Of a DNA stretch of 64,000 bases, positions 11,790-46,543 are shown in pieces. Position 1 is the first letter of the stretch. Each line of letters opens with the position of its first letter. The stretch lies in the NCBI RefSeq assembly GCF_036365525.1, contig NC_090404.1, positions 3,534,001-3,598,000 on the forward strand. Reading direction: 5' to 3'. The translations under genes and the position numbers were made by a program. The notes under the pieces were generated by a model. That model searched no databases. It was given only the letters and a program-made list of their open reading frames with translations, and had not been told where the DNA came from. This DNA is from Heterodontus francisci (Eukaryota).

Positions 11790-14700
11790 GCAGGGTGTAA
11801 TGTTCAGCCTGTGGCATGTGGGAAGTGATGGATGCACCATGGGTCCCAGACAAACACACCTGTAGGAAGTGTTACAGGCGGCACTAGCTTGAGCTCTTGC
11901 TTTCAGAACTTATGCGGCCGCTGGAAACACTGTGGCGCATCCGTGAGGCAAAGAACTTCATGGAGAGCACATTTAGGGAGATGGTCACAATGCAGGTTAG
12001 GAGTCTGCAGGTAGTTAGCGAATGGGTGACCGCCAGGCTGTCTAGGAGAACCAGGCAGGTAGTGCAGGAGTTCCCTGAGACGATCTCGCTTGTTGATCAT
12101 TTTTCTGTTTTATACATTGGTGAGGGTGATGGTTCCTCAGGCAGCTGCAGTCAGAACCAAGTCCACGGCACCACGGGTGGCTCAGCTGCACAGGAAGGGA
12201 GGAAGAAGAGTGCAAGAGCAGCAGTGAAATGGGATTTGTTGGTTAGGAGAAGAGACAGGCGTTTCTGAAGCCGTATACGTGACACCAGATGGCATGTTGC
12301 CTCCCTCGTGACATGGTCAAGGATTGCACAGAGCGGCTACAGGACATTCTTCTGGTGGAGGGTGAACAGCCAGAGGTAGCGGTCCACGGTGGTGCCAACG
12401 ACATAGGTAGGAAGGGAGATGAGATCCTGAAAGCAGTTTTTATGGAACTAGGAAGGGGATTAAAATGCAAGACATCAATAGAAGTAATCTCAAGATGGAT
12501 TAATTAATTAATTAATGTTATTTTATCTCAGGATTAGTCCCCGTTTCATGTGCTAATGAATATAGGAATAGGAGGATTGAGCTATTGAACTGGTGTAGAA
12601 GAGAGGACGTCAAATTTATGAGTCATTGGGACCGGTTCTGGGGCAGGTGAGACATGTACAAGATGGATGAGTCACACCTTAACAGGATCGGAACTAATAT
12701 CGTCGTGAGGAACTTTGCTACTGTTGCTGGGGAGTGTTTAACGGAAATGGGAACCTTCGAGGAACTCAGATTGGAGGGAAGCAAAACTGGTAATTGGTAA
12801 TAGAAACGTCGTAAGCGAAATTAGAAGACAGCCGAAGCAAAGGCAAGCATCAAATAGAATCAGAAAGCAGTTTAATGCTAAAAAGGCATAATTAAAGGCA
12901 CTCTGTATGAATGCAAGTAGCATTCGCAACAAGGTTGATGATTTGAAGGCATAAATTGAGGTAAATGGGTATGTTCTAATGGCCATTACAGAGACGTGAC
13001 TGCGGCGTTACCATTGTTGCCTGAATATCCAAGGATATTCGACATTTGGGAAGAATAGGCAAGAAGGGAAAGTAGATGGGGCAGTACCATTCATAAGAGA
13101 CAAGATCTGTACGTTAGTGAGAGTGGCTTTTAGATCGAAGGGTCAAGACGTTAGTAATTTTGGGTGGATTTCAGAAACAGCAAGAGGCATCAAACATTGG
13201 GGGGAGTTTTTTTTTATATAGACCATCAAACAGTAGCCGTAATGTTGGACACGATATAAATCAGGAAATTAGAGATGCATGTAATGTGAGTATTAAGACA
13301 TAATGGGCGAACTTCAAATTACATATAGAATGGGCACACCTGATCAGCATGAATACAGTGGAGGATGAATTCCTGGAGTGTGTATGATATGGGTTTCTGG
13401 CGCACTACATTGAAGAACAAACTAGGGATCGGGCTATTTTAGATTTAGCATTTATGTCATGAGCAATGGGATTTAAAAACCTTGTTGTAAAAGAGCCTTT
13501 GTGAAATTGTAACCATAATATGATAGAATTTCACATTAAGTTTGAATGTGATATAGTTTATTCTGCAACTGGGGTCTTAAATCTGAACAAGGGAAACAAT
13601 GAAGCTGTGAGGGGCAAGTTAGCTATGGTGGATTGGGAAACTGCACTAAACGGTTTGACAGTAGACAGGCAATAGCTCGTATTTAAAGAAGTACTACATG
13701 GTGTACAATAGATATAAATCCCTCTGAGTCACAAACACCCAATGGGAAATGCGATCCACCCATCGCTAACAAAAGAAGATAAATATTGTATTCAAGCAAA
13801 GGAAATGGCTTATATGAATGCTACAAAAGTGGTAAAACTGAGTATTGGCAGCAATTAGAACCCGGCAAAGGATGACCAACAAACTGATAAAGAAAGGCAA
13901 AAGAGAATATGAATGCAAGTCAGCGAGAAACATTAAGGCGGACTCTAAAAGCTTCTTTAGGTATGTGAAATGAAAAAGATTACAGGTGATGAGAGGAGAA
14001 TTTCTATTGGAGAACAGGGAAATGGCGGAGATTCTGAACAGTCACTTTGTGTCTGTCCTCATGGAACACAGGACTGAAAATCTCCCAGAAATACTAGGTA
14101 ACAAAGGGACGTGTGAAAATTGAGGAACTGAAATAAATTATCATTAGTAAAGAAGTAGAATTTCAAACAAACAGTTGAAGGAGGTGGCTATACAGACAGT
14201 GGAGGCATTGGTCGTTATTTTTCAAAAGACTATTGATGATTCTATAGATTCTGGAACGGTTCCTCCGGATTGAAAAGTAGCAAATGAAGCCAAACTAGTT
14301 AAGAAGAGAGAGGCAGACAGAGAATGGAGAAGCACAGACCTGCTAGTTTGGCGTTAGCAGCAGGGAAAATGTTAGAATGTATTATAAACGTTGTTGTAAC
14401 TGGACACTTAGAAAAAATGGTAAAATTGGGCCTAGTCAACATGGAGTTCTGAAAGGGAAATCATGTTTGACAAGACAGTTGGAGTTTCTTAAGGATGGTA
14501 CTTGTAGCATAGAAAAAAGAAAACTAGTGAATGTCGTGCATTTAGGTTTTCAAAAGGCTATTGATAAGACCCAAAGGCGTAAAAAATAAAAAAATTGTAG
14601 CGCATGAGATTGGGGGTAATATGCTAGTATGGATTGAGAAGTGGTTAACAGACAGAAAGCAGCCAATAAGAATGAACAGGTCATTCTCAGGATGGCAGGC

Positions 14701-15735
14701 TGCTACTAGTTAGGTACCGCAAGGATCAGTGCTATGGCCACAACTGTTCACAATCGATATAAATGATTTGAATGTGGGAACCAATTGTAATATTTCCAAA
14801 TTTGCCGATGACACAAAACTAGGTGGGAATGTAAGTTGTGAGAAGATGCAAGAAGGCTTCAAGTGGACTTGGACAGGCTAAGCGAATGGGCAAGAACGTG
14901 GCAGATGGAGTGAAATGTGAATCAGTGTGAAGTTATCAACTTCTGTAAAAAAAAACTGAATGAAGGAGTATTCCTTAAATGTTAAGAGGTTTGGAAGTGT
15001 TGGCATCCAAAGGGACTTGAGTGTCCTTGTTCATGAGTCACTAAAAACTAGCATGCAGGTACAACACTCAGTAAGGAAGGGAAATGGCATGTTGGCCTTC
15101 ATCGCAAGTGGTTTTGAGTACAGAAGTAAAGATGTCTTGCTGCAGTTCTATAGAGCCTTGGTGAGACCACACCTGGAGTATTGTGTACAGTTTTGGTCTA
15201 CTTACCTAAGGAAGAATATACTTGCCATAGAGGGAGTGCAATTGAGGTTCACCAGACTAATCCCTGGAATAGTGGGATTGCCTTATGAGGAGAGATTGAG
15301 GAAACTGGGCCTGTATTCCATAGCGTTTCGAAGAATGAGAGGTCATCTCATTGAAACTTACAAAATCATGGAAACTTACAAAATTTTTACAGGGCATGAC
15401 AGGGTGGTTGTAGGTAGGATGTTTCCTATGGCTGGTGAGTATAGACCAGGGGACATAATCTCAGAATAAGGAGTAGGCTATTTAAGACTGAGATGAGGAG
15501 GCAACGCAGAGGGTGGTGAATCTTTGTAATTTTGTGCCCCAGAGGGCTGTGAAAACTCAATAATTGAGCATAGTTAAGACAGAAATCGATAGATTTCTGG
15601 AGACTAATGACATCATGGATATGGAGGTAGCTTGGAAAAGTGGTGTTGAGGTAGATGATCATCCATAATCTAACTGAATGGTGGAGCAGGCTCGACGGGC
15701 TGAATGGCCTATTCCTGTTCCAATGCACCTATGTT
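11790..15735 (+). mobile_element. Near full-length decayed CR1 LINE (ORF1 and ORF2 remnants)
   Basis: ORF1 remnants (CCLP..VKD, GEQPEVAVHGGANDIG), EN start (LCMNASSIRNK), RT and LVRPHLEYCVQFW, with many stops. Confidence 0.9.
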
Positions 15736-20560: not shown

Positions 20561-21506
20561 TTTCATGACTCGATGACTATTAGCGCACACATCGGAGTAT
20601 GAGAACAATGAATCAAACTAGGATGTTCTCAACACGGAGTACCAAGGAATTACTGATTTATCTATCTAGGTGGAAGATGTGAGGTGGCATACTGAGATAT
20701 TTGTCATGTGTTCATTATGTGGTCATGTGCTACTACAGTGGCAAATGGCAATGTGGCATCACATGCACTCCATTCTCACTGGGATGTGATTTCTGTTTAT
20801 GTGGAAGATCAGACAATGTTGCATGGTTATAAACATCACACCTCAACAAGAGGAAACAGGTTAGCGATATTTCTTACACAAACCATTTGATGCTTCTTAA
20901 ATTGCATTAGTCGGACAGCTCCTGCCTACTCAACATTACCCTGTGGAATCCCAATGAGTCAACCTAAACCGCTGTATTAGCATCTATCACAGTATACATT
21001 TTCGTATCACAAATATATTAATGCTGACTACTCTATTGTTAAGCAATTTCCTGATTTATGATACAACATAAAAAGTTGGCAGCTTAATATCACAAGTAAT
21101 GTCGAGACCTTCATTTGCTTGGGCCCTAAACCCTAGAATTTCCTTCCTAAACCTTACTACTTCTCTTTCCCTGTCTCCTCCTTTACTACGCTCCTTAAAA
21201 ACCGATCTCTCTGACCAACTGTTTGGTGATCTGCCCCAATATCTCCTTATGTGGCTCAGTCTCAAATTATAGCACTCCTATGAGACCCTTGCGGTACTTA
21301 ATTACGTTAAAGGGGCTGTGTTAATACTAGTTGTTGGAATTGTGGTTGTTGGGACACGGAAAATACTGGAAACCCACTAATAATTGTTTTGGTTTCCTTC
21401 CATAAATAATGAAATGTCAAAGATGTCACAGAATCCTGTCACACTGACGTGTCTGCTGCGAATTTGTTTAATAACTTCCCAATTTTATTTTTTTTCTTCT
21501 TCTCAG

Positions 21507-21964
21507 TTAACTTAGTGGCGATTGTGATCCTGTCCCGAAGAAGGTGCGGTCTCTCCGGATGTATCACTCTGTATCTGGTGTCCATGGCGGTGACGGATCT
21601 CCTGGTCGTTATCACTGCAGTGATATTCAATCGGATTACAGGCATTTATTTTCCAGTTAGTTTTATGTCCCTGACTCCGTCCTGTACTCTCAGTACCGTG
21701 ATAATCTACGCAGCCACGGAGAGCTCTGTCTGGTTAACCGTCGCTTTCACCTTCGACCGATTTATAGCCATTTGCTGCCAGAAGCTGAAAACAACCTATT
21801 GCACCGAGAAAACGGCGTCAGTGGTTGTAGGAACGGTCGGTTTTTTGAGCTGTTTAAAAAGCGTTCCCTGGTATTTTATGTACGAACCACTCTACCTAAT
21901 TAAAAATGTGCCGTGGTTTTGTAATGTAAAATCCAGCTTCTATAATTCACTCGCATGGACAGCC
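21507..21964 (+). pseudogene. GPR139-like paralog B, exon 2, 5' part (TM1-TM4/ECL2), interrupted by CR1
   Basis: Acceptor ttcttcttctcag|; YLVSMAVTDLL, VWLTVAFTFDRFIAICC, PWFC...AWTA, then CR1 sequence. Confidence 0.92.
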
Positions 21965-22813
21965 GACTTCACCTGCTGGAAGTGCATCCGTCTCCAGCTC
22001 CTATCAGACCGTGTTAGGGAATTGGAGCTGGAGCTGGATGAACTGAGGATCATTCGGGAAGCTGAGGGGTTGATAGATAGAAGCTACACGGAGGTCGTTA
22101 CTCCACAAATCAAAGGCAGCTGGGTAACAGTTAGAGGTGGGAAGAGGTCAGTGCAGGGATCTCCTGTGGTCGTTCCCCTCAACAACAAGTATACAGTTTT
22201 AGATACTGTTGGGGGGGACGGCCTATCGGGGGCAGGCTGCAGTGACCGGGCCTCTGGCACGGGGTCCTGCACTGTGGCTCAGAAGGGAAGGAGGGAGAAT
22301 GGGAGAGCACTAGTCATCGGGGACTCGATGGTGAGGAGTACGGACAGGCGGTTCTGTGGGCGCAGGCGAGACGCACGGATGGTTTGTTGCCTCCCTGGTG
22401 CCAGGGTCCGTGATGTTTGTGATCGCGTCTTCAGGATCCTTAAAGGGGAGGGGGAGCAGCCAGAGGTCGTGGTGCACATTGGCACCAACGACGTAGGAAG
22501 GAAGGGTGGCACAGATGTTAGAAGTGAGTTTAGGGAGTTAGGCTGGAAGCTGAAAGCTCGGACGGACAGAGTTGTTATCTCTGGTTTGTTGCCGGCGCCA
22601 CGTGATAGTGAGGCTAGGAATAGGGAGAGAGCACAGCTGAACATGTGGCTGCAGGAATGGTGTAGGAGGGAGGGCTTCCAGTTCTTGGATAATTGGACTG
22701 CATTCTGGGGAAGATGGGACCTGTTCAAACAGGACGGGCTGCATCTGAACCAGAGGGGCACCAATATCCTGGGAGGGAGGTTTGCTAGTACTGTTCGGGA
22801 GGGTTTAAACTAG
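21965..22813 (+). CDS. CR1 ORF1 (partial CxxC, leucine zipper, SGNH esterase), in frame with upstream GPCR exon
   Basis: TCWKC, LELELDELR, and SGNH blocks VIGDS / HIGTND / DGLH. Confidence 0.9.
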   Translation, partial: DFTCWKCIRLQLLSDRVRELELELDELRIIREAEGLIDRSYTEVVTPQIKGSWVTVRGGKRSVQGSPVVVPLNNKYTVLDTVGGDGLSGAGCSDRASGTGSCTVAQKGRRENGRALVIGDSMVRSTDRRFCGRRRDARMVCCLPGARVRDVCDRVFRILKGEGEQPEVVVHIGTNDVGRKGGTDVRSEFRELGWKLKARTDRVVISGLLPAPRDSEARNRERAQLNMWLQEWCRREGFQFLDNWTAFWGRWDLFKQDGLHLNQRGTNILGGRFASTVREGLN

Positions 22814-25704
22814 TTTGGGAGGGGGATGGGAACCGGACTTGTAATCCAGGGACCAGTGGGTCCACTCAGAAAGACAAAGAGTGTAGTGAGGTATTGGGGA
22901 AGGTAGCACTGTCGCAGAGGACAGATGGGCACGGAGAAGGGTTAAAGTGCGTATACTTCAACGCAAGAAGCATCAGGAATAAGGTGAGTGAATTGAAGGC
23001 GTGGATGGGCACTTGGGACTACGATGTTGTGGCCATCACTGAAACGTGGATAGGTGAGGGGGAGGAATGGTTTTTGGAGGTACCTGGTTATAGATGTTTT
23101 CATAAGATTAGGAATGGTGGTAAAAGAGGTGGGGGGGTGGCATTGTTAGTTAGAAATAGTGTAACAACTGCTGAAAGAATTTTCGAGGAGGATCTGCCGA
23201 CTGAGGCACTGTGGGTTGAGGTCAGGAACAGGAAAGGAGCAGTCACCTTGATGGGAGTTTTCTATAGGCCCCCCAATAGCAGCAGGGAGGTGGAAGAGCA
23301 GATTGGGAAACAGATTTTGGAAAGGAGCAGAAGTCACAGGGTAGTAATTATGGGGGATTTCAACTTCCCAAATATTGATTGGCAACTCTTTAGATCGAAT
23401 AGTTTGGATGGGGTAGTGTTTGTGCAGTATGTCCAGGAAGCTTTTCTGACTCAGTATGTAGACTGCCCGACCAGAGGGGAGGCAATATTGGATTTGGTAC
23501 TAGGTAATGAACCAGGGCAAGTGATAGAGCTGTTGGTGGGCGAGCACTTTGGAGATAGTGATCACAATTCTGTAGCATTCACTGTGGTAATGGAGAGGGA
23601 TAGGTATGTGCAACAGGGCAAGGTTTACAATTGGGGGAAGGGTAGATATGATGCTGTCAGGCAGGAACTGAGGAGCATAAGTTGGGAGCATATGCTGGCA
23701 GGGAAGGGCACGGTCGAAATGTGGAACTTTTTCAAGGAGCAGATAGTAGGGGCCATTGATAAGCATGTCCCTGTCAGACAGGGAAGGGATGGTCATGTGA
23801 GGGAACCGTGGTTGACAAGAGAGGTTGAGAGTCTTGTTAGGAAGAAGAAGGATGCGTATATAAAGTTGAGGAAAAAGGGCACAGGCATAGCTCTGGAGGG
23901 ATACAAGATGGCCAGGAAGGATCTGAAGAAAGGGATTAGGAGAGCTAAGAGAGGGCATGAAAAATGCTTGGCGGGTAGGATAAAAGAAAACCCCAAGGCC
24001 TTTTATGCGTATGTCAGAAATATGAGGATGACTAGGGGGACCATAGGTCCGGTCAAGGACAATAGCGGGAGACTGTGTGTTGAGCCGGAAGAGATAAGTG
24101 AGGTTTTGAATGAGTACTTCTCTTCGGTATTTACGAATGAGAAGGGGTGTATTACTGAAGAGGACGGTGTGAAACAGACTGGTAAGCTCGAGGAAGTGCT
24201 CGTTAGGAGGGAAGATGTGTTGGGGTTTTTGAATAACTTGAAGATAGACAAGTCTCCCGGGCCTGACGGGGTATATCCAAGGATGTTATGGGAAGCAAGG
24301 GATGAAATTGCAGAGCCGCTGGCAATGATCTTTTCATCTTCTCTGCTGACGGGGGTGGTACCAGGTGATTGGAGGGTGGCAAATGTTGTGCCCCTGTTCA
24401 AGAAAGGGAATAGGAACAACCCTGGGAATTACAGGCCAGTTAGTCTTACTTCGGTGGTAGGCAAGTTGATGGAAAAGGTGCTGAGGGATAGGATTTCTGA
24501 GCATCTGGAAAGACACTGCTTGATTCGGGACAGTCAGCACGGTTTTGTGAGGGGTAGGTCTTGCCTCACAAGCCTGATTGAATTCTTTGAGCAGGTGACC
24601 AAGCAAGTGGATGAGGGTAAACCAGTGGATGTGGTGTACATGGATTTTAGTAAGGCATTTGATAAGGTCCCCCATGGTAGACTTATGGAGAAAGTCAGGA
24701 GGCATGGGATAGTGGGGAATGTGGCCAGTTGGATTAAGAATTGGCTAACTGATAGAAGGCAGAGAGTGGTCTTAGATGGTAAATACTCAGCCTGGAGCCC
24801 AGTTACCAGTGGCGTGCCGCAGGGATCAGTTCTGGGTCCTCTCCTGTTTGTGATTTTTATTAACGACTTGGATGAGGAAGTCGAAGGGTGGGTCAGTAAA
24901 TTTGCAGATGATACAAAGGTTGGTGGAGTTGTGGATACCGAGGAGGGCTATTGTCGTCTGCAAAGGGACTTGGATAGGTTGCAGTGCTGGGCTGAAAAGT
25001 GGCAGATGGAGTTTAACCCTGAAAAGTGTGAGGTCGTCCATTTTGGAAGGACAAACATGAATGCAAAATACTGGGTTAACGGTAGGGTTCTTGGGCATGT
25101 GGAGGAGCAGAGAGACCTTGGGGTCTATGTGCATAGATCATTGAAAGTTGCAACTCAAGTGGATAGGGCTGTGAAGAAGGCATATGGGGTGTTAGCGTTC
25201 ATTAGCAGAGGGATTGAATTTAAGAGCCGTGAGGTGATGATGCAGCTGTACAGGACCTTGGTAAGGCCTCATTTGGAGTACTGTGTGCAGTTCTGGTCGC
25301 CTCATTTTAGGAAGGATGTGGAAGCCTTGGAGAGGGTGCAGAGGAGATTTACCAGGATGTTGCCTGGAATGGAGAATAAGTCTTACGAGGAAAGGCTGAA
25401 CATTCTAGGCCTCTTCTCATTAGAAAGGAGAAGGATGAGGGGTGACATGATAGAGGTTTATAAGATGATCAGGGGAATAGATAGGGTAGACAGTCAGAAA
25501 CTTTTTCCCCGGGTGGAGCAAAGCATTACAAGGGGTCATAAATTTAAGGTGAAGGGTGGGAGATATAAGGGGGATGTCAGGGGAAGGTTCTTTACCCAGA
25601 GAGTGGTCGAGGCATGGAATGCCTTGCCCGGGGAAGTTGTTGAGTCAGAAACTTTAGGGACTTTCAAAAGGCTTTTGGATAGGTATATGGATAAAGGAGA
25701 ATGA
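22801..25704 (+). CDS. CR1 ORF2: APE endonuclease plus reverse transcriptase
   Basis: YFNARS, ITETW, MGDFN, SDH (EN); [27 protein letters not shown] (RT). Frame open from 22789; the track start at 22894 is TTG and the first ATG is at 23005. Confidence 0.95.
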   Translation, partial: GFKLVWEGDGNRTCNPGTSGSTQKDKECSEVLGKVALSQRTDGHGEGLKCVYFNARSIRNKVSELKAWMGTWDYDVVAITETWIGEGEEWFLEVPGYRCFHKIRNGGKRGGGVALLVRNSVTTAERIFEEDLPTEALWVEVRNRKGAVTLMGVFYRPPNSSREVEEQIGKQILERSRSHRVVIMGDFNFPNIDWQLFRSNSLDGVVFVQYVQEAFLTQYVDCPTRGEAILDLVLGNEPGQVIELLVGEHFGDSDHNSVAFTVVMERDRYVQQGKVYNWGKGRYDAVRQELRSISWEHMLAGKGTVEMWNFFKEQIVGAIDKHVPVRQGRDGHVREPWLTREVESLVRKKKDAYIKLRKKGTGIALEGYKMARKDLKKGIRRAKRGHEKCLAGRIKENPKAFYAYVRNMRMTRGTIGPVKDNSGRLCVEPEEISEVLNEYFSSVFTNEKGCITEEDGVKQTGKLEEVLVRREDVLGFLNNLKIDKSPGPDGVYPRMLWEARDEIAEPLAMIFSSSLLTGVVPGDWRVANVVPLFKKGNRNNPGNYRPVSLTSVVGKLMEKVLRDRISEHLERHCLIRDSQHGFVRGRSCLTSLIEFFEQVTKQVDEGKPVDVVYMDFSKAFDKVPHGRLMEKVRRHGIVGNVASWIKNWLTDRRQRVVLDGKYSAWSPVTSGVPQGSVLGPLLFVIFINDLDEEVEGWVSKFADDTKVGGVVDTEEGYCRLQRDLDRLQCWAEKWQMEFNPEKCEVVHFGRTNMNAKYWVNGRVLGHVEEQRDLGVYVHRSLKVATQVDRAVKKAYGVLAFISRGIEFKSREVMMQLYRTLVRPHLEYCVQFWSPHFRKDVEALERVQRRFTRMLPGMENKSYEERLNILGLFSLERRRMRGDMIEVYKMIRGIDRVDSQKLFPRVEQSITRGHKFKVKGGRYKGDVRGRFFTQRVVEAWNALPGEVVESETLGTFKRLLDRYMDKGE

Positions 25705-25812
25705 TGGGGTATAGATTAAATTGTCCTTGACAGAGGACAAAGGATCGGCACAACATTGTGGGCCGAAGGGCCTGTTCTGTGCTGTATGTTCTATGTTCTA
25801 TGTTCTATGTTC

Positions 25813-26262
25813 TATGATTGGTTTGCACGTGTTTTAAATCCAGGTCTCCCATTCCTCCTGATTCTGTTGCTCAATGCTCTGACCGTCAGACACATCCTAG
25901 CGGCCAGTAGAGGTCGCAGGAGACTCCGGGCTCTCAGCAATGGAGTTGCTCAGAGTGACCCAGAGTTGGAGAATAGGAGAAAGTCCATTGTTTTACTCTT
26001 CGCCATCTCGGGGAGCTTCGTCCTGTTGTGGATGACGTATGTTGTAAATTTCCTGTATGTAAAAATCACAAAAGAATCTTATTTCGGAGGTTCCAATTTC
26101 AATGACTCAAAGTTCATTCTCCAAGAGAGTGGAAACATGCTTCAGCTCTTGAGCTGTTGCACCAACACGTGTATTTATGCAGTGACCCAGAGAAAATTCA
26201 GAGAGGAGTTGATGAATGCGGCAAAATATCTTGGGAATCGAATTGTTAAATTCGTAAACTAG
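25813..26262 (+). pseudogene. GPR139-like paralog B, exon 2, 3' part (TM5-TM7)
   Basis: YDWFARVLNPGLPFLLILLLNALTVRHIL...SDPELENRRKSIVLL...CCTNTCIY...*. The reconstituted gene is 978 nt, the same length as paralog C. Confidence 0.92.
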
Positions 26263-45632: not shown

Positions 45633-46543
45633 TTAATTTAGTGGCGATTATGATCCTGTCCCGTGGAAAGTGCGGACTCTCCACCTGCACCACTCGCTAC
45701 CTGGTGTCCATGGCAATAGCGGATCTACTGGTCATTATCACTGAGGTCATACTGTCCCAGAACAGTTACTATTATTTCCCAGGATCTTTCCTAGACATCA
45801 CTCCTGTGTGTCGATTTATCCACATCCTGATTAATGCAGCCACAGACTGTTCTGTCTGGTTCACCGTCACTTTCTCCTTTGATCGATTTGTCACCATTTG
45901 TTGTCACAAGCTGAAAACAAAATATTGCACTGGGAAATCTGCAGCGGTGGTTCTGGCAACAACCTGCATTCTGCTCTGTTTAAAAAACATCCCTTACTAC
46001 TTTACATATGAATCTGGAGAGATAATCGACAATGTACCATGGTTCTGTTATGATAAGCCTAGCTATTATACTGAGCCCGGATGGGTGGGAATGGATTGGT
46101 TTGACAAAGTTTTAACTCCATTGCTTCCATTCCCTTTAATTCTGTTGCTCAATGCTCTGACAGTCAGATACATTTTAGTAGCCAGTCAAGTCCGTAAGGG
46201 ACTGAGGGGTCAGAGCAAGGGAGAAAATCGCAGTGACCCAGAGATGGAGAGCAGAAGGAAGTCTGCTATTTTACTCTTCACCATTTCGGGCAGCTTCATA
46301 CTTCTGTGGTTGTCATATGTTATAGATTTTTTACATTACAAAGTTGCAGGAACAGATCCCAACAATTACAATGCTTCTTTATATATCTTTGGAGAAGTTG
46401 GATTTATGCTGCGGACCTTAAATTGCTGCACGAACACATTTATTTATGGGGTGACTCAGTCCAAGTTCAGAGAGCAGTGCAAGAGCATAGTGAAATATCC
46501 GGTTACATCAATTATTCAGTTGATCAAGAAACAAAACAACTGA
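45633..46543 (+). CDS. GPR139-like GPCR paralog C, exon 2 (intact; 325 aa spliced)
   Basis: Acceptor ctctcttacag|; seven hydrophobic segments; YLVSMAIADLL, FSFDRFVTIC, PWFC, LLPF, CCTNTFIY; TGA at 46541-43. Confidence 0.93.

Follow-up and report, generated by a model that had tools for sequence, protein, structure and literature searches.

Among retrotransposons that encode two open reading frames (ORFs) on one RNA, more than one route to ORF2 has been put forward. Reinitiation is the route proposed for L1 and SART1, in which ORF2 translation depends on that of ORF1 (passages of PMC2881922). For the Dictyostelium elements TRE5-A and TRE3-A, a passage of PMC5911963 states that a -1 frameshift is required for ORF2 translation, so the idea of -1 frameshifting is not new for elements without long terminal repeats (non-LTR elements). 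Here we describe the ORF1/ORF2 junction of a CR1 long interspersed nuclear element (LINE) in a 64,000-nt stretch of the shark Heterodontus francisci (contig NC_090404.1, positions 3,534,001 to 3,598,000, forward strand), referred to below as the window, whose own numbering is used throughout. ORF1 of this copy ends on the slippery heptamer U UUA AAC and a stop codon, and sequence comparison leads us to consider it quite probable that programmed -1 frameshifting at this site yields a CR1 ORF1-ORF2 fusion protein.

TRE5-A and TRE3-A resemble CR1 in being non-LTR elements of the apurinic/apyrimidinic endonuclease (APE) type, with an ORF1 followed by an APE-reverse transcriptase ORF, but they belong to another clade and carry another ORF1. 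The passage of PMC5911963 gives neither a slip site nor an assay for them, whereas the CR1 signal is defined and is conserved throughout vertebrate CR1. L1 and SART1 share a bicistronic LINE RNA with CR1 but make a separate ORF2 protein (ORF2p), whereas the CR1 layout predicts a fusion. In coronavirus ORF1a/1b the heptamer U UUA AAC and its phase are identical to those of CR1; there a pseudoknot follows and the stop lies five codons off, whereas the CR1 stop comes immediately after the heptamer, with no conserved fold behind it. We found no description of CR1 frameshifting in the searchable literature, the original CR1 papers lying outside its coverage. The first 300,000 of the 449,034 characters of a 2016 frameshifting review do not mention CR1, and the passages of PMC11835228 and PMC4255032 say nothing about CR1 ORF2 translation. 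CR1 is the main bird repeat, with >410,000 fragments in chicken according to a passage of PMC11835228, and is abundant in the 6-Gb host genome.

Layout of the ORF1/ORF2 junction

The ORF1 terminus reads GAG GGT TTA AAC TAG, with the conserved heptamer at 22804-22810 (+ strand, as for all features below) and the stop straight after it at 22811-22813. In other copies this stop is TAG or TAA, either of which keeps a CTA/CTR-type leucine codon in the -1 frame. ORF2 lies in the -1 frame, which is open from 22789 to 25701 (971 aa from stop to stop) and thus opens 15 nt before the heptamer. The TAG that closes this frame upstream (22786-22788) lies 3-15 nt ahead of the heptamer across 14 of the 16 junction rows. 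Because of this TAG, a shift into ORF2 must fall between it and the ORF1 stop, and in host subfamily D, where the ORF2 frame opens 3 nt before the heptamer, there is no other place for it. The positions that the initial annotation had given for the heptamer, the stop, the opening of ORF2 and its first ATG all proved correct, as did the X_XXY_YYZ phase (T TTA AAC) and the -1 direction of the slip into ORF2.

Eukaryotic -1 sites follow the pattern X XXY YYZ, with Y being A or U and Z not G, according to a passage of PMC7618472. The heptamer at 22804-22810 has this canonical form, and the overlapping -1 downstream ORF is conserved. Only two heptamers within ORF1 fit the rule; both are in phase, they overlap, and they sit at its extreme end (22801 and 22804). 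The additional one, G GGU UUA at 22801-22807, occurs in several host subfamilies but not in subfamily D or in the bird-type copies described below. Since these are the sole rule-fitting heptamers of ORF1 and the site is conserved where its flanks are not, the junction heptamer is more than a chance occurrence.

The linker from the slip site to the endonuclease (22810-22944) lacks an AUG and, by frame analysis, is open in the -1 frame only. Neither an in-frame AUG nor a common near-cognate start was found in the ORF1/ORF2 overlap of this copy. The first in-frame ATG of ORF2 (23005-23007) follows the YFNARS motif and lies inside the endonuclease, at the equivalent of residue 31 in an alignment to the L1 endonuclease, and the glutamate of the ORF2 ETW motif aligns with L1 E43; we take L1 N14 and E43 to be catalytic. 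A contig from a probable RNA run covers 22444-23400 with one difference and no gap.

If the site works as proposed, a minority of ribosomes would slip -1 on U UUA AAC and continue into ORF2, giving a fusion product of ~1,270 aa joined as ...EGLN-LVWEG..., and the slip rate would presumably set a high ratio of ORF1 protein (ORF1p) to ORF2p. The peptides that would separate the junction outcomes in mass spectrometry are EGLNLVWEGDGNR versus EGLKLVWEGDGNR or EGFKLVWEGDGNR.

An older, decayed CR1 copy of subfamily F occupies 11888-15469 of the window. Its junction at 12732-12742 reads GAGTGTTTAAC; the equivalent site that the initial annotation had seen there is present, but one A, the stop and the run of five G (G5) that relatives keep have been lost.

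Conservation of the junction

Host subfamilies A to F were collected by targeted searches, in which the D and E queries omitted the end of ORF1. Exact TTTAAAC-TAR was present in all 35 rows of subfamily A, a set biased by queries that spanned the junction, by four loci counted twice and by inclusion of the window itself; the conservation on which the initial annotation depended is borne out there. The same exact form was found in 12/16 copies of subfamily B (the other four with one mismatch), 8/9 of C, 17/20 of D and 19/20 of E, and in 8 of the 19 evaluable among 20 copies of the old subfamily F, where seven more had one mismatch. Where the endonuclease of an exact copy could be located, it was in the -1 frame in 34/35 (A), 11/12 (B), 8/8 (C), 10/16 (D), 16/19 (E) and 4/7 (F), and the exact copies off this frame differ in length by 1-3 nt.

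Blind sampling of 800 kb, together with the window, located 21 ORF1 anchors, two of which stop short of the ORF1 end. Nine of the 19 evaluable junctions were exact, one was exact but displaced by an expanded G-run, four had one mismatch, two had a small deletion and three had no recognizable junction. No intact junction of a different design was seen in this sample. When the host genome was queried with a distant ORF1 relative (P0163), all eight fetched loci belonged to subfamily B, six with an exact junction, one with one mismatch and one with the stop lost.

Copies labelled bird-type for their similarity to bird CR1 proteins came from 29 metagenome-contig loci, counted with one further fragment and mostly cut short. 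TTTAAAC-TAR was exact in seven of nine evaluable copies and had one mismatch in another, and the endonuclease lay in the -1 frame in all six copies in which it could be located. At the protein level, 69/110 ORF1 homologues end in Leu-Asn (LN), the others being mostly fragments, and LN likewise ends 31 of the 37 close cluster representatives whose sequence extends to the C-terminus. Named homologues include those of rays, sharks, frogs, birds, a snake, lizards, turtles and a sturgeon. Stingray and stork gene models read on into F-K-L, which places both in the same -1 frame.

Codon use within the element (TTA for 8% of Leu, AAC for 41% of Asn, T at 26% of third bases) indicates that protein constraint does not explain the heptamer. 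Nine amino acids occur before LN (G, A, T, S, C, D, Y and I among them). A residue whose codon cannot end in U (E, K, Q, M or W) occupies this place in 1/68 proteins, one fragment having been dropped, versus 33/68 one place earlier; other nearby positions are also low in these residues (1-3/68), for hydrophobic reasons, and this test is suggestive of a nucleotide constraint without being decisive. Identity between shark-type and bird-type sequences, profiled in 22 lineage representatives picked partly for carrying the motif, was 0.98 over the heptamer, 0.76 over a G-tract downstream and 0.29-0.39 in the flanks. Stop-to-endonuclease linkers were compared in 12 well-preserved copies, hand-chosen with one per lineage. 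They range from 95 to 263 nt and have diverged in sequence, and every one is 2 mod 3 in length; their -1 frame contains no stop in 605 codons, versus 49/593 and 51/593 in the other frames. The codon overlapping the ORF1 stop varies (GTT, ATT, GTG, ATG, GAT, GGT, GAC, GCT and more). These comparisons argue that the junction is a real and deeply conserved signal of putative recoding type, and they support the gag-pol-like fusion protein that the initial annotation had proposed.

A distant survey comprised 150 cluster representatives, of which 110 reach the C-terminus; LN ends 28/73 of the lower-scoring ones. From 55 divergent, full-length-looking ORF1 relatives, which are not mutually independent and give evidence at the protein level, 26 end in a heptamer-compatible tripeptide (14 LN, 10 QGN/SGN, 2 SKN), versus 3.4% of internal tripeptides. 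The QGN/SGN ends could be encoded with G GGA AAC and the SKN ends with A AAA AAC; Gln, which is impossible before the LN type, precedes 9/10 of the GN ends. Searches for the junction DNA of these relatives found none in viral contigs or plasmids, and genome contigs gave one 506-nt fragment without the junction. The C-terminal pattern provides a lead that the frameshift mechanism may predate vertebrates and may swap heptamers. Other distant relatives end near FF or FLG. The relatives with QGN, SKN, FF or FLG ends (P0163, P0164, P0167, P0191, P0157, P0201 and kin) would be predicted to carry different classic slippery heptamers.

Candidate downstream stimulator and competing explanations

The G-tract A GGGGG AT GGG at 22820-22830, with its G5 starting 10 nt past the heptamer, is a candidate stimulator. 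Of 21 representatives, 20-21 have G at each of the columns +10 to +13. The G-run region begins at 22817, six nt after the heptamer as initially annotated, and the G5 is its conserved part. The form kept in both shark-type and bird-type copies is 4-5 G starting 8-10 nt past the heptamer, then 2-3 other bases and GGG. Read in the ORF2 frame, the codon ahead of the tract specifies different residues (E, Q, R, K, V) but constantly has G as its third base, and both glycines of the tract are coded GGG, which accounts for 42% of the Gly codons of the element. Across the 3.9 kb of the element, no more than 2-3 stretches show a comparable G pattern. Contigs of other subfamilies from four sequencing runs lose their match at 22834, the end of the G-tract block.

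The GGACC-agtg-GGTCC hairpin of the initial annotation is present at 22850-22863, but fold tests and comparison place it outside the conserved signal, and it was rejected as stimulator: it lies 39 nt from the heptamer, scores z -0.9 against shuffles and is confined to subfamily A. A downstream fold, also raised there, did not appear, as the 80 nt after the heptamer of this copy fold no better than shuffles (z +0.1). No Rfam match was found at the junction at E<=1, and no stable stem-loop or pseudoknot of the canonical kind was found 5-9 nt downstream, in RNA that is C-poor. A scan for bacterial promoters, which has no bearing on a vertebrate, was empty. Long-range pairing of the G-tract, tried in seven elements, was rejected as well; the best duplex energies (-16.6 to -22.6) were within, or close to, those reached by control G-rich 18-mers, and the duplexes shared no place. 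G-quadruplex RNA can stimulate -1 shifts in engineered systems (abstract of PMC3919603), but a two-tier G-quadruplex is predicted in only 11/20 CR1 representatives and the conserved core offers no more than two runs of G (G5 and G3-4), and a G-quadruplex is not favoured as the stimulator. As a separate observation, the bird-type copies L065, L067, L068 and L069 carry a 6-7 bp hairpin ~27-45 nt after the heptamer, behind the G-tract, and some host subfamilies have post-G-tract hairpins of differing sequence, with energies not above shuffles and no common fold.

Passages of PMC7618472 and PMC4937337 describe an unstructured C-rich motif 10 nt downstream of the nsp2 slip site of the arterivirus PRRSV (virus of the porcine reproductive and respiratory syndrome), which is bound by nsp1-beta/PCBP and stimulates shifting. 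The CR1 G5 tract, at 8-10 nt after its slip site, is likewise a conserved unstructured motif, and the 10-nt spacing is equal. The likeness is geometric only: the PRRSV motif is C-rich, protein-bound and associated with -2 and -1 shifts, whereas that of CR1 is G-rich. In SARS-CoV-2, a 0-frame stop close to the site raises frameshifting (passage of PMC8168617). Given the conserved G-tract, the arterivirus-like spacing and this effect of a near 0-frame stop, we favour the adjacent stop plus the G-tract over a hairpin or pseudoknot as the putative stimulator, a proposal that the sequence comparisons leave evenly balanced. The single-stranded G-tract would stand at the mRNA entrance of the ribosome, where, bound by a protein or folded as a weak G-quadruplex, it may cause a pause together with the stop. 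More tentatively, it is possible that vertebrate CR1 and probably its distant animal relatives (with G GGA AAC, A AAA AAC and U UUU UUY) all make a Gag-Pol-like fusion by -1 frameshifting, the vertebrate shift being driven by a structure-free adjacent stop and a G-tract 10 nt downstream that is recognized by a host protein binding G-runs, or by ORF1p.

Several observations weigh against programmed frameshifting. U UUA AAC by itself is a weak shifter, downstream folds of 20 representatives range from z -1.6 to +1.6 (pseudoknots not being modelled explicitly), and a search for shared secondary structure gave 0 consensus pairs in nine sequences. Only two longer fused ORF1-ORF2 proteins were found, both resembling gene models on decayed copies. 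Four of the seven groups examined carry an in-frame linker AUG before the endonuclease (D 10/10, E 16/16, F 4/4, bird-type 6/6). These AUGs would suit termination-reinitiation, in which ribosomes restart near the ORF1 stop, at an AUG or at any codon as for L1, and make a separate ORF2p. In subfamily E the stop and an AUG in frame with ORF2 overlap as UAAUG, resembling the stop-start arrangement used by caliciviruses and influenza B BM2 (passage of PMC3542737). Because initiation on human L1 ORF2 is held not to depend on its AUG (passage of PMC5009743), a missing AUG alone proves nothing. Reinitiation has nevertheless to deal with the in-frame rows of A, B and C, where an AUG ahead of the endonuclease motif is found in 0/34, 0/11 and 1/8, respectively. 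The consensus AUG that the initial annotation named as a counter-indication is thus absent from subfamily A, where the first ORF2 AUG comes after the NARS motif; in B and C it comes after the E43 equivalent. An AUG at or next to the stop is likewise absent in A (0/34) and B (0/11), and is present in E and some bird-type copies, four of which have it 2 nt after the stop (UAG-GU-AUG). The termination upstream ribosome-binding site motif UGGGA, expected 40-90 nt upstream of the stop, occurs as TGGGA at -96 and -41 in this copy and at -96 in A, B, C and E, but is not conserved across lineages, being missing within 110 nt in 7/8 bird-type copies. Further points against reinitiation are the free variation of the codon that overlaps the stop and the lack of a usable AUG in A, B and C. 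It also leaves both the invariant phased heptamer upstream of the stop and the heptamer-compatible ends of distant relatives unexplained; as the route to ORF2 we regard it as improbable. As an observation in its own right, subfamily E (L111-L130) has TAATG right after the heptamer, so that slip site and stop-start layout coexist at a single junction.

A compromise would have frameshifting as the ancestral, general route, with free ORF2p added by reinitiation in lineages that have an AUG near the stop; this would fit the retention of the heptamer even beside UAAUG or UAG-GU-AUG. The position of the AUG is not common between lineages and it may be an ordinary linker methionine, and we think this combination rather unlikely, although it overlaps with programmed frameshifting and does not exclude it. 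Very unlikely is that the motif is kept for another cause, such as a need for C-terminal Leu-Asn, a splice acceptor, or an RNA packaging or dimer signal, with ORF2 made from a spliced or separate transcript. GTTTAAAC is palindromic in this copy, CTAG is acceptor-like, and invariance is at least 90% at L282 and N283, but codon choice is fixed far past protein need and nothing would explain why the linker is fixed in the -1 frame. TAA lineages have no AG at the site, and no pyrimidine tract lies ahead of it. Contigs of four out of 22 listed sequencing runs, whose RNA status is mostly assumed, showed neither splicing nor editing at the junction, a result with no bearing on the level of expression; the two nearby joints have a depth of 3-7 and non-canonical ends.

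The copy, its setting and implications

The element at 21962-25815 is a 5'-truncated CR1 LINE copy with Pfam SGNH, Exo_endo_phos and RVT_1 domains and copies that are 99-100% identical. A search of the 6.0-Gb host genome matched its ORF1 end at 99-100% in at least 150 places, which marks it as young. It lacks the 5' untranslated region (UTR) and ~23 codons of ORF1; in full-length relatives (n=3) ORF1 encodes 306 aa and ORF2 has 966 codons counted from the slip site. Its ORF1 (21962-22813) has a Cys-rich N-terminal part, a coiled-coil-like stretch and an SGNH esterase (Pfam Lipase_GDSL_2; PDB 4c1b, 'ORF1-encoded protein', E 1e-26), and ends ...EGLN stop. ORF2 (22804-25704) is intact, with 966 codons from the slip site encoding an APE endonuclease and a reverse transcriptase, as judged from the ORF list, Pfam (Exo_endo_phos and RVT_1) and L1 endonuclease structures. 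A short 3' UTR that closes on a tandem microsatellite, with no poly(A), is a trait of the CR1 clade, and the 3' UTR of this copy (25705-25815) agrees with it, ending in tandem GTTCTAT repeats (~25785-25815). The name CR1 comes from the initial annotation, the architecture and general knowledge, and the placement in CR1 rather than L2 is presumed on these grounds. The nearest named homologues of the window proteins are shark and ray proteins.

The copy splits a single-exon G-protein-coupled receptor (GPCR) gene (7tm_1; the closest named protein is 'probable GPR139') into 21413-21961 and 25816-26262. The halves would rejoin as W-T-A-Y-D-W, with the same three-codon spacing as an intact paralogue. 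The insertion has no target-site duplication, but short stretches matching the element occur at each end. The first receptor half and the truncated ORF1 share one frame and form a chimeric open frame of 466 codons. The gene belongs to a tandem GPCR cluster, with the intact paralogue (54-57% identical) at 45635-46525 and the tail of another at 3-119. Separately, a protein 90% identical to ORF1 (P0001) is recorded as Pseudomonas aeruginosa and a related fragment (L090) lies in a Providencia assembly; these are likely vertebrate contamination of bacterial records.

A conserved frameshift, if true, would answer how CR1 ORF2 is translated and would set CR1 apart from L1 reinitiation, with the enzyme made as a fusion tethered to ORF1p. 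It would also explain CR1 ORF2 gene models that have no start, and would provide a natural frameshift signal lacking a folded stimulator; such signals are rare and have until now been known from viruses in which a protein cofactor takes part. If the G-tract is indeed read by a binding protein, whether a host G-run binder or ORF1p, polymerase output would be coupled to the level of that protein.

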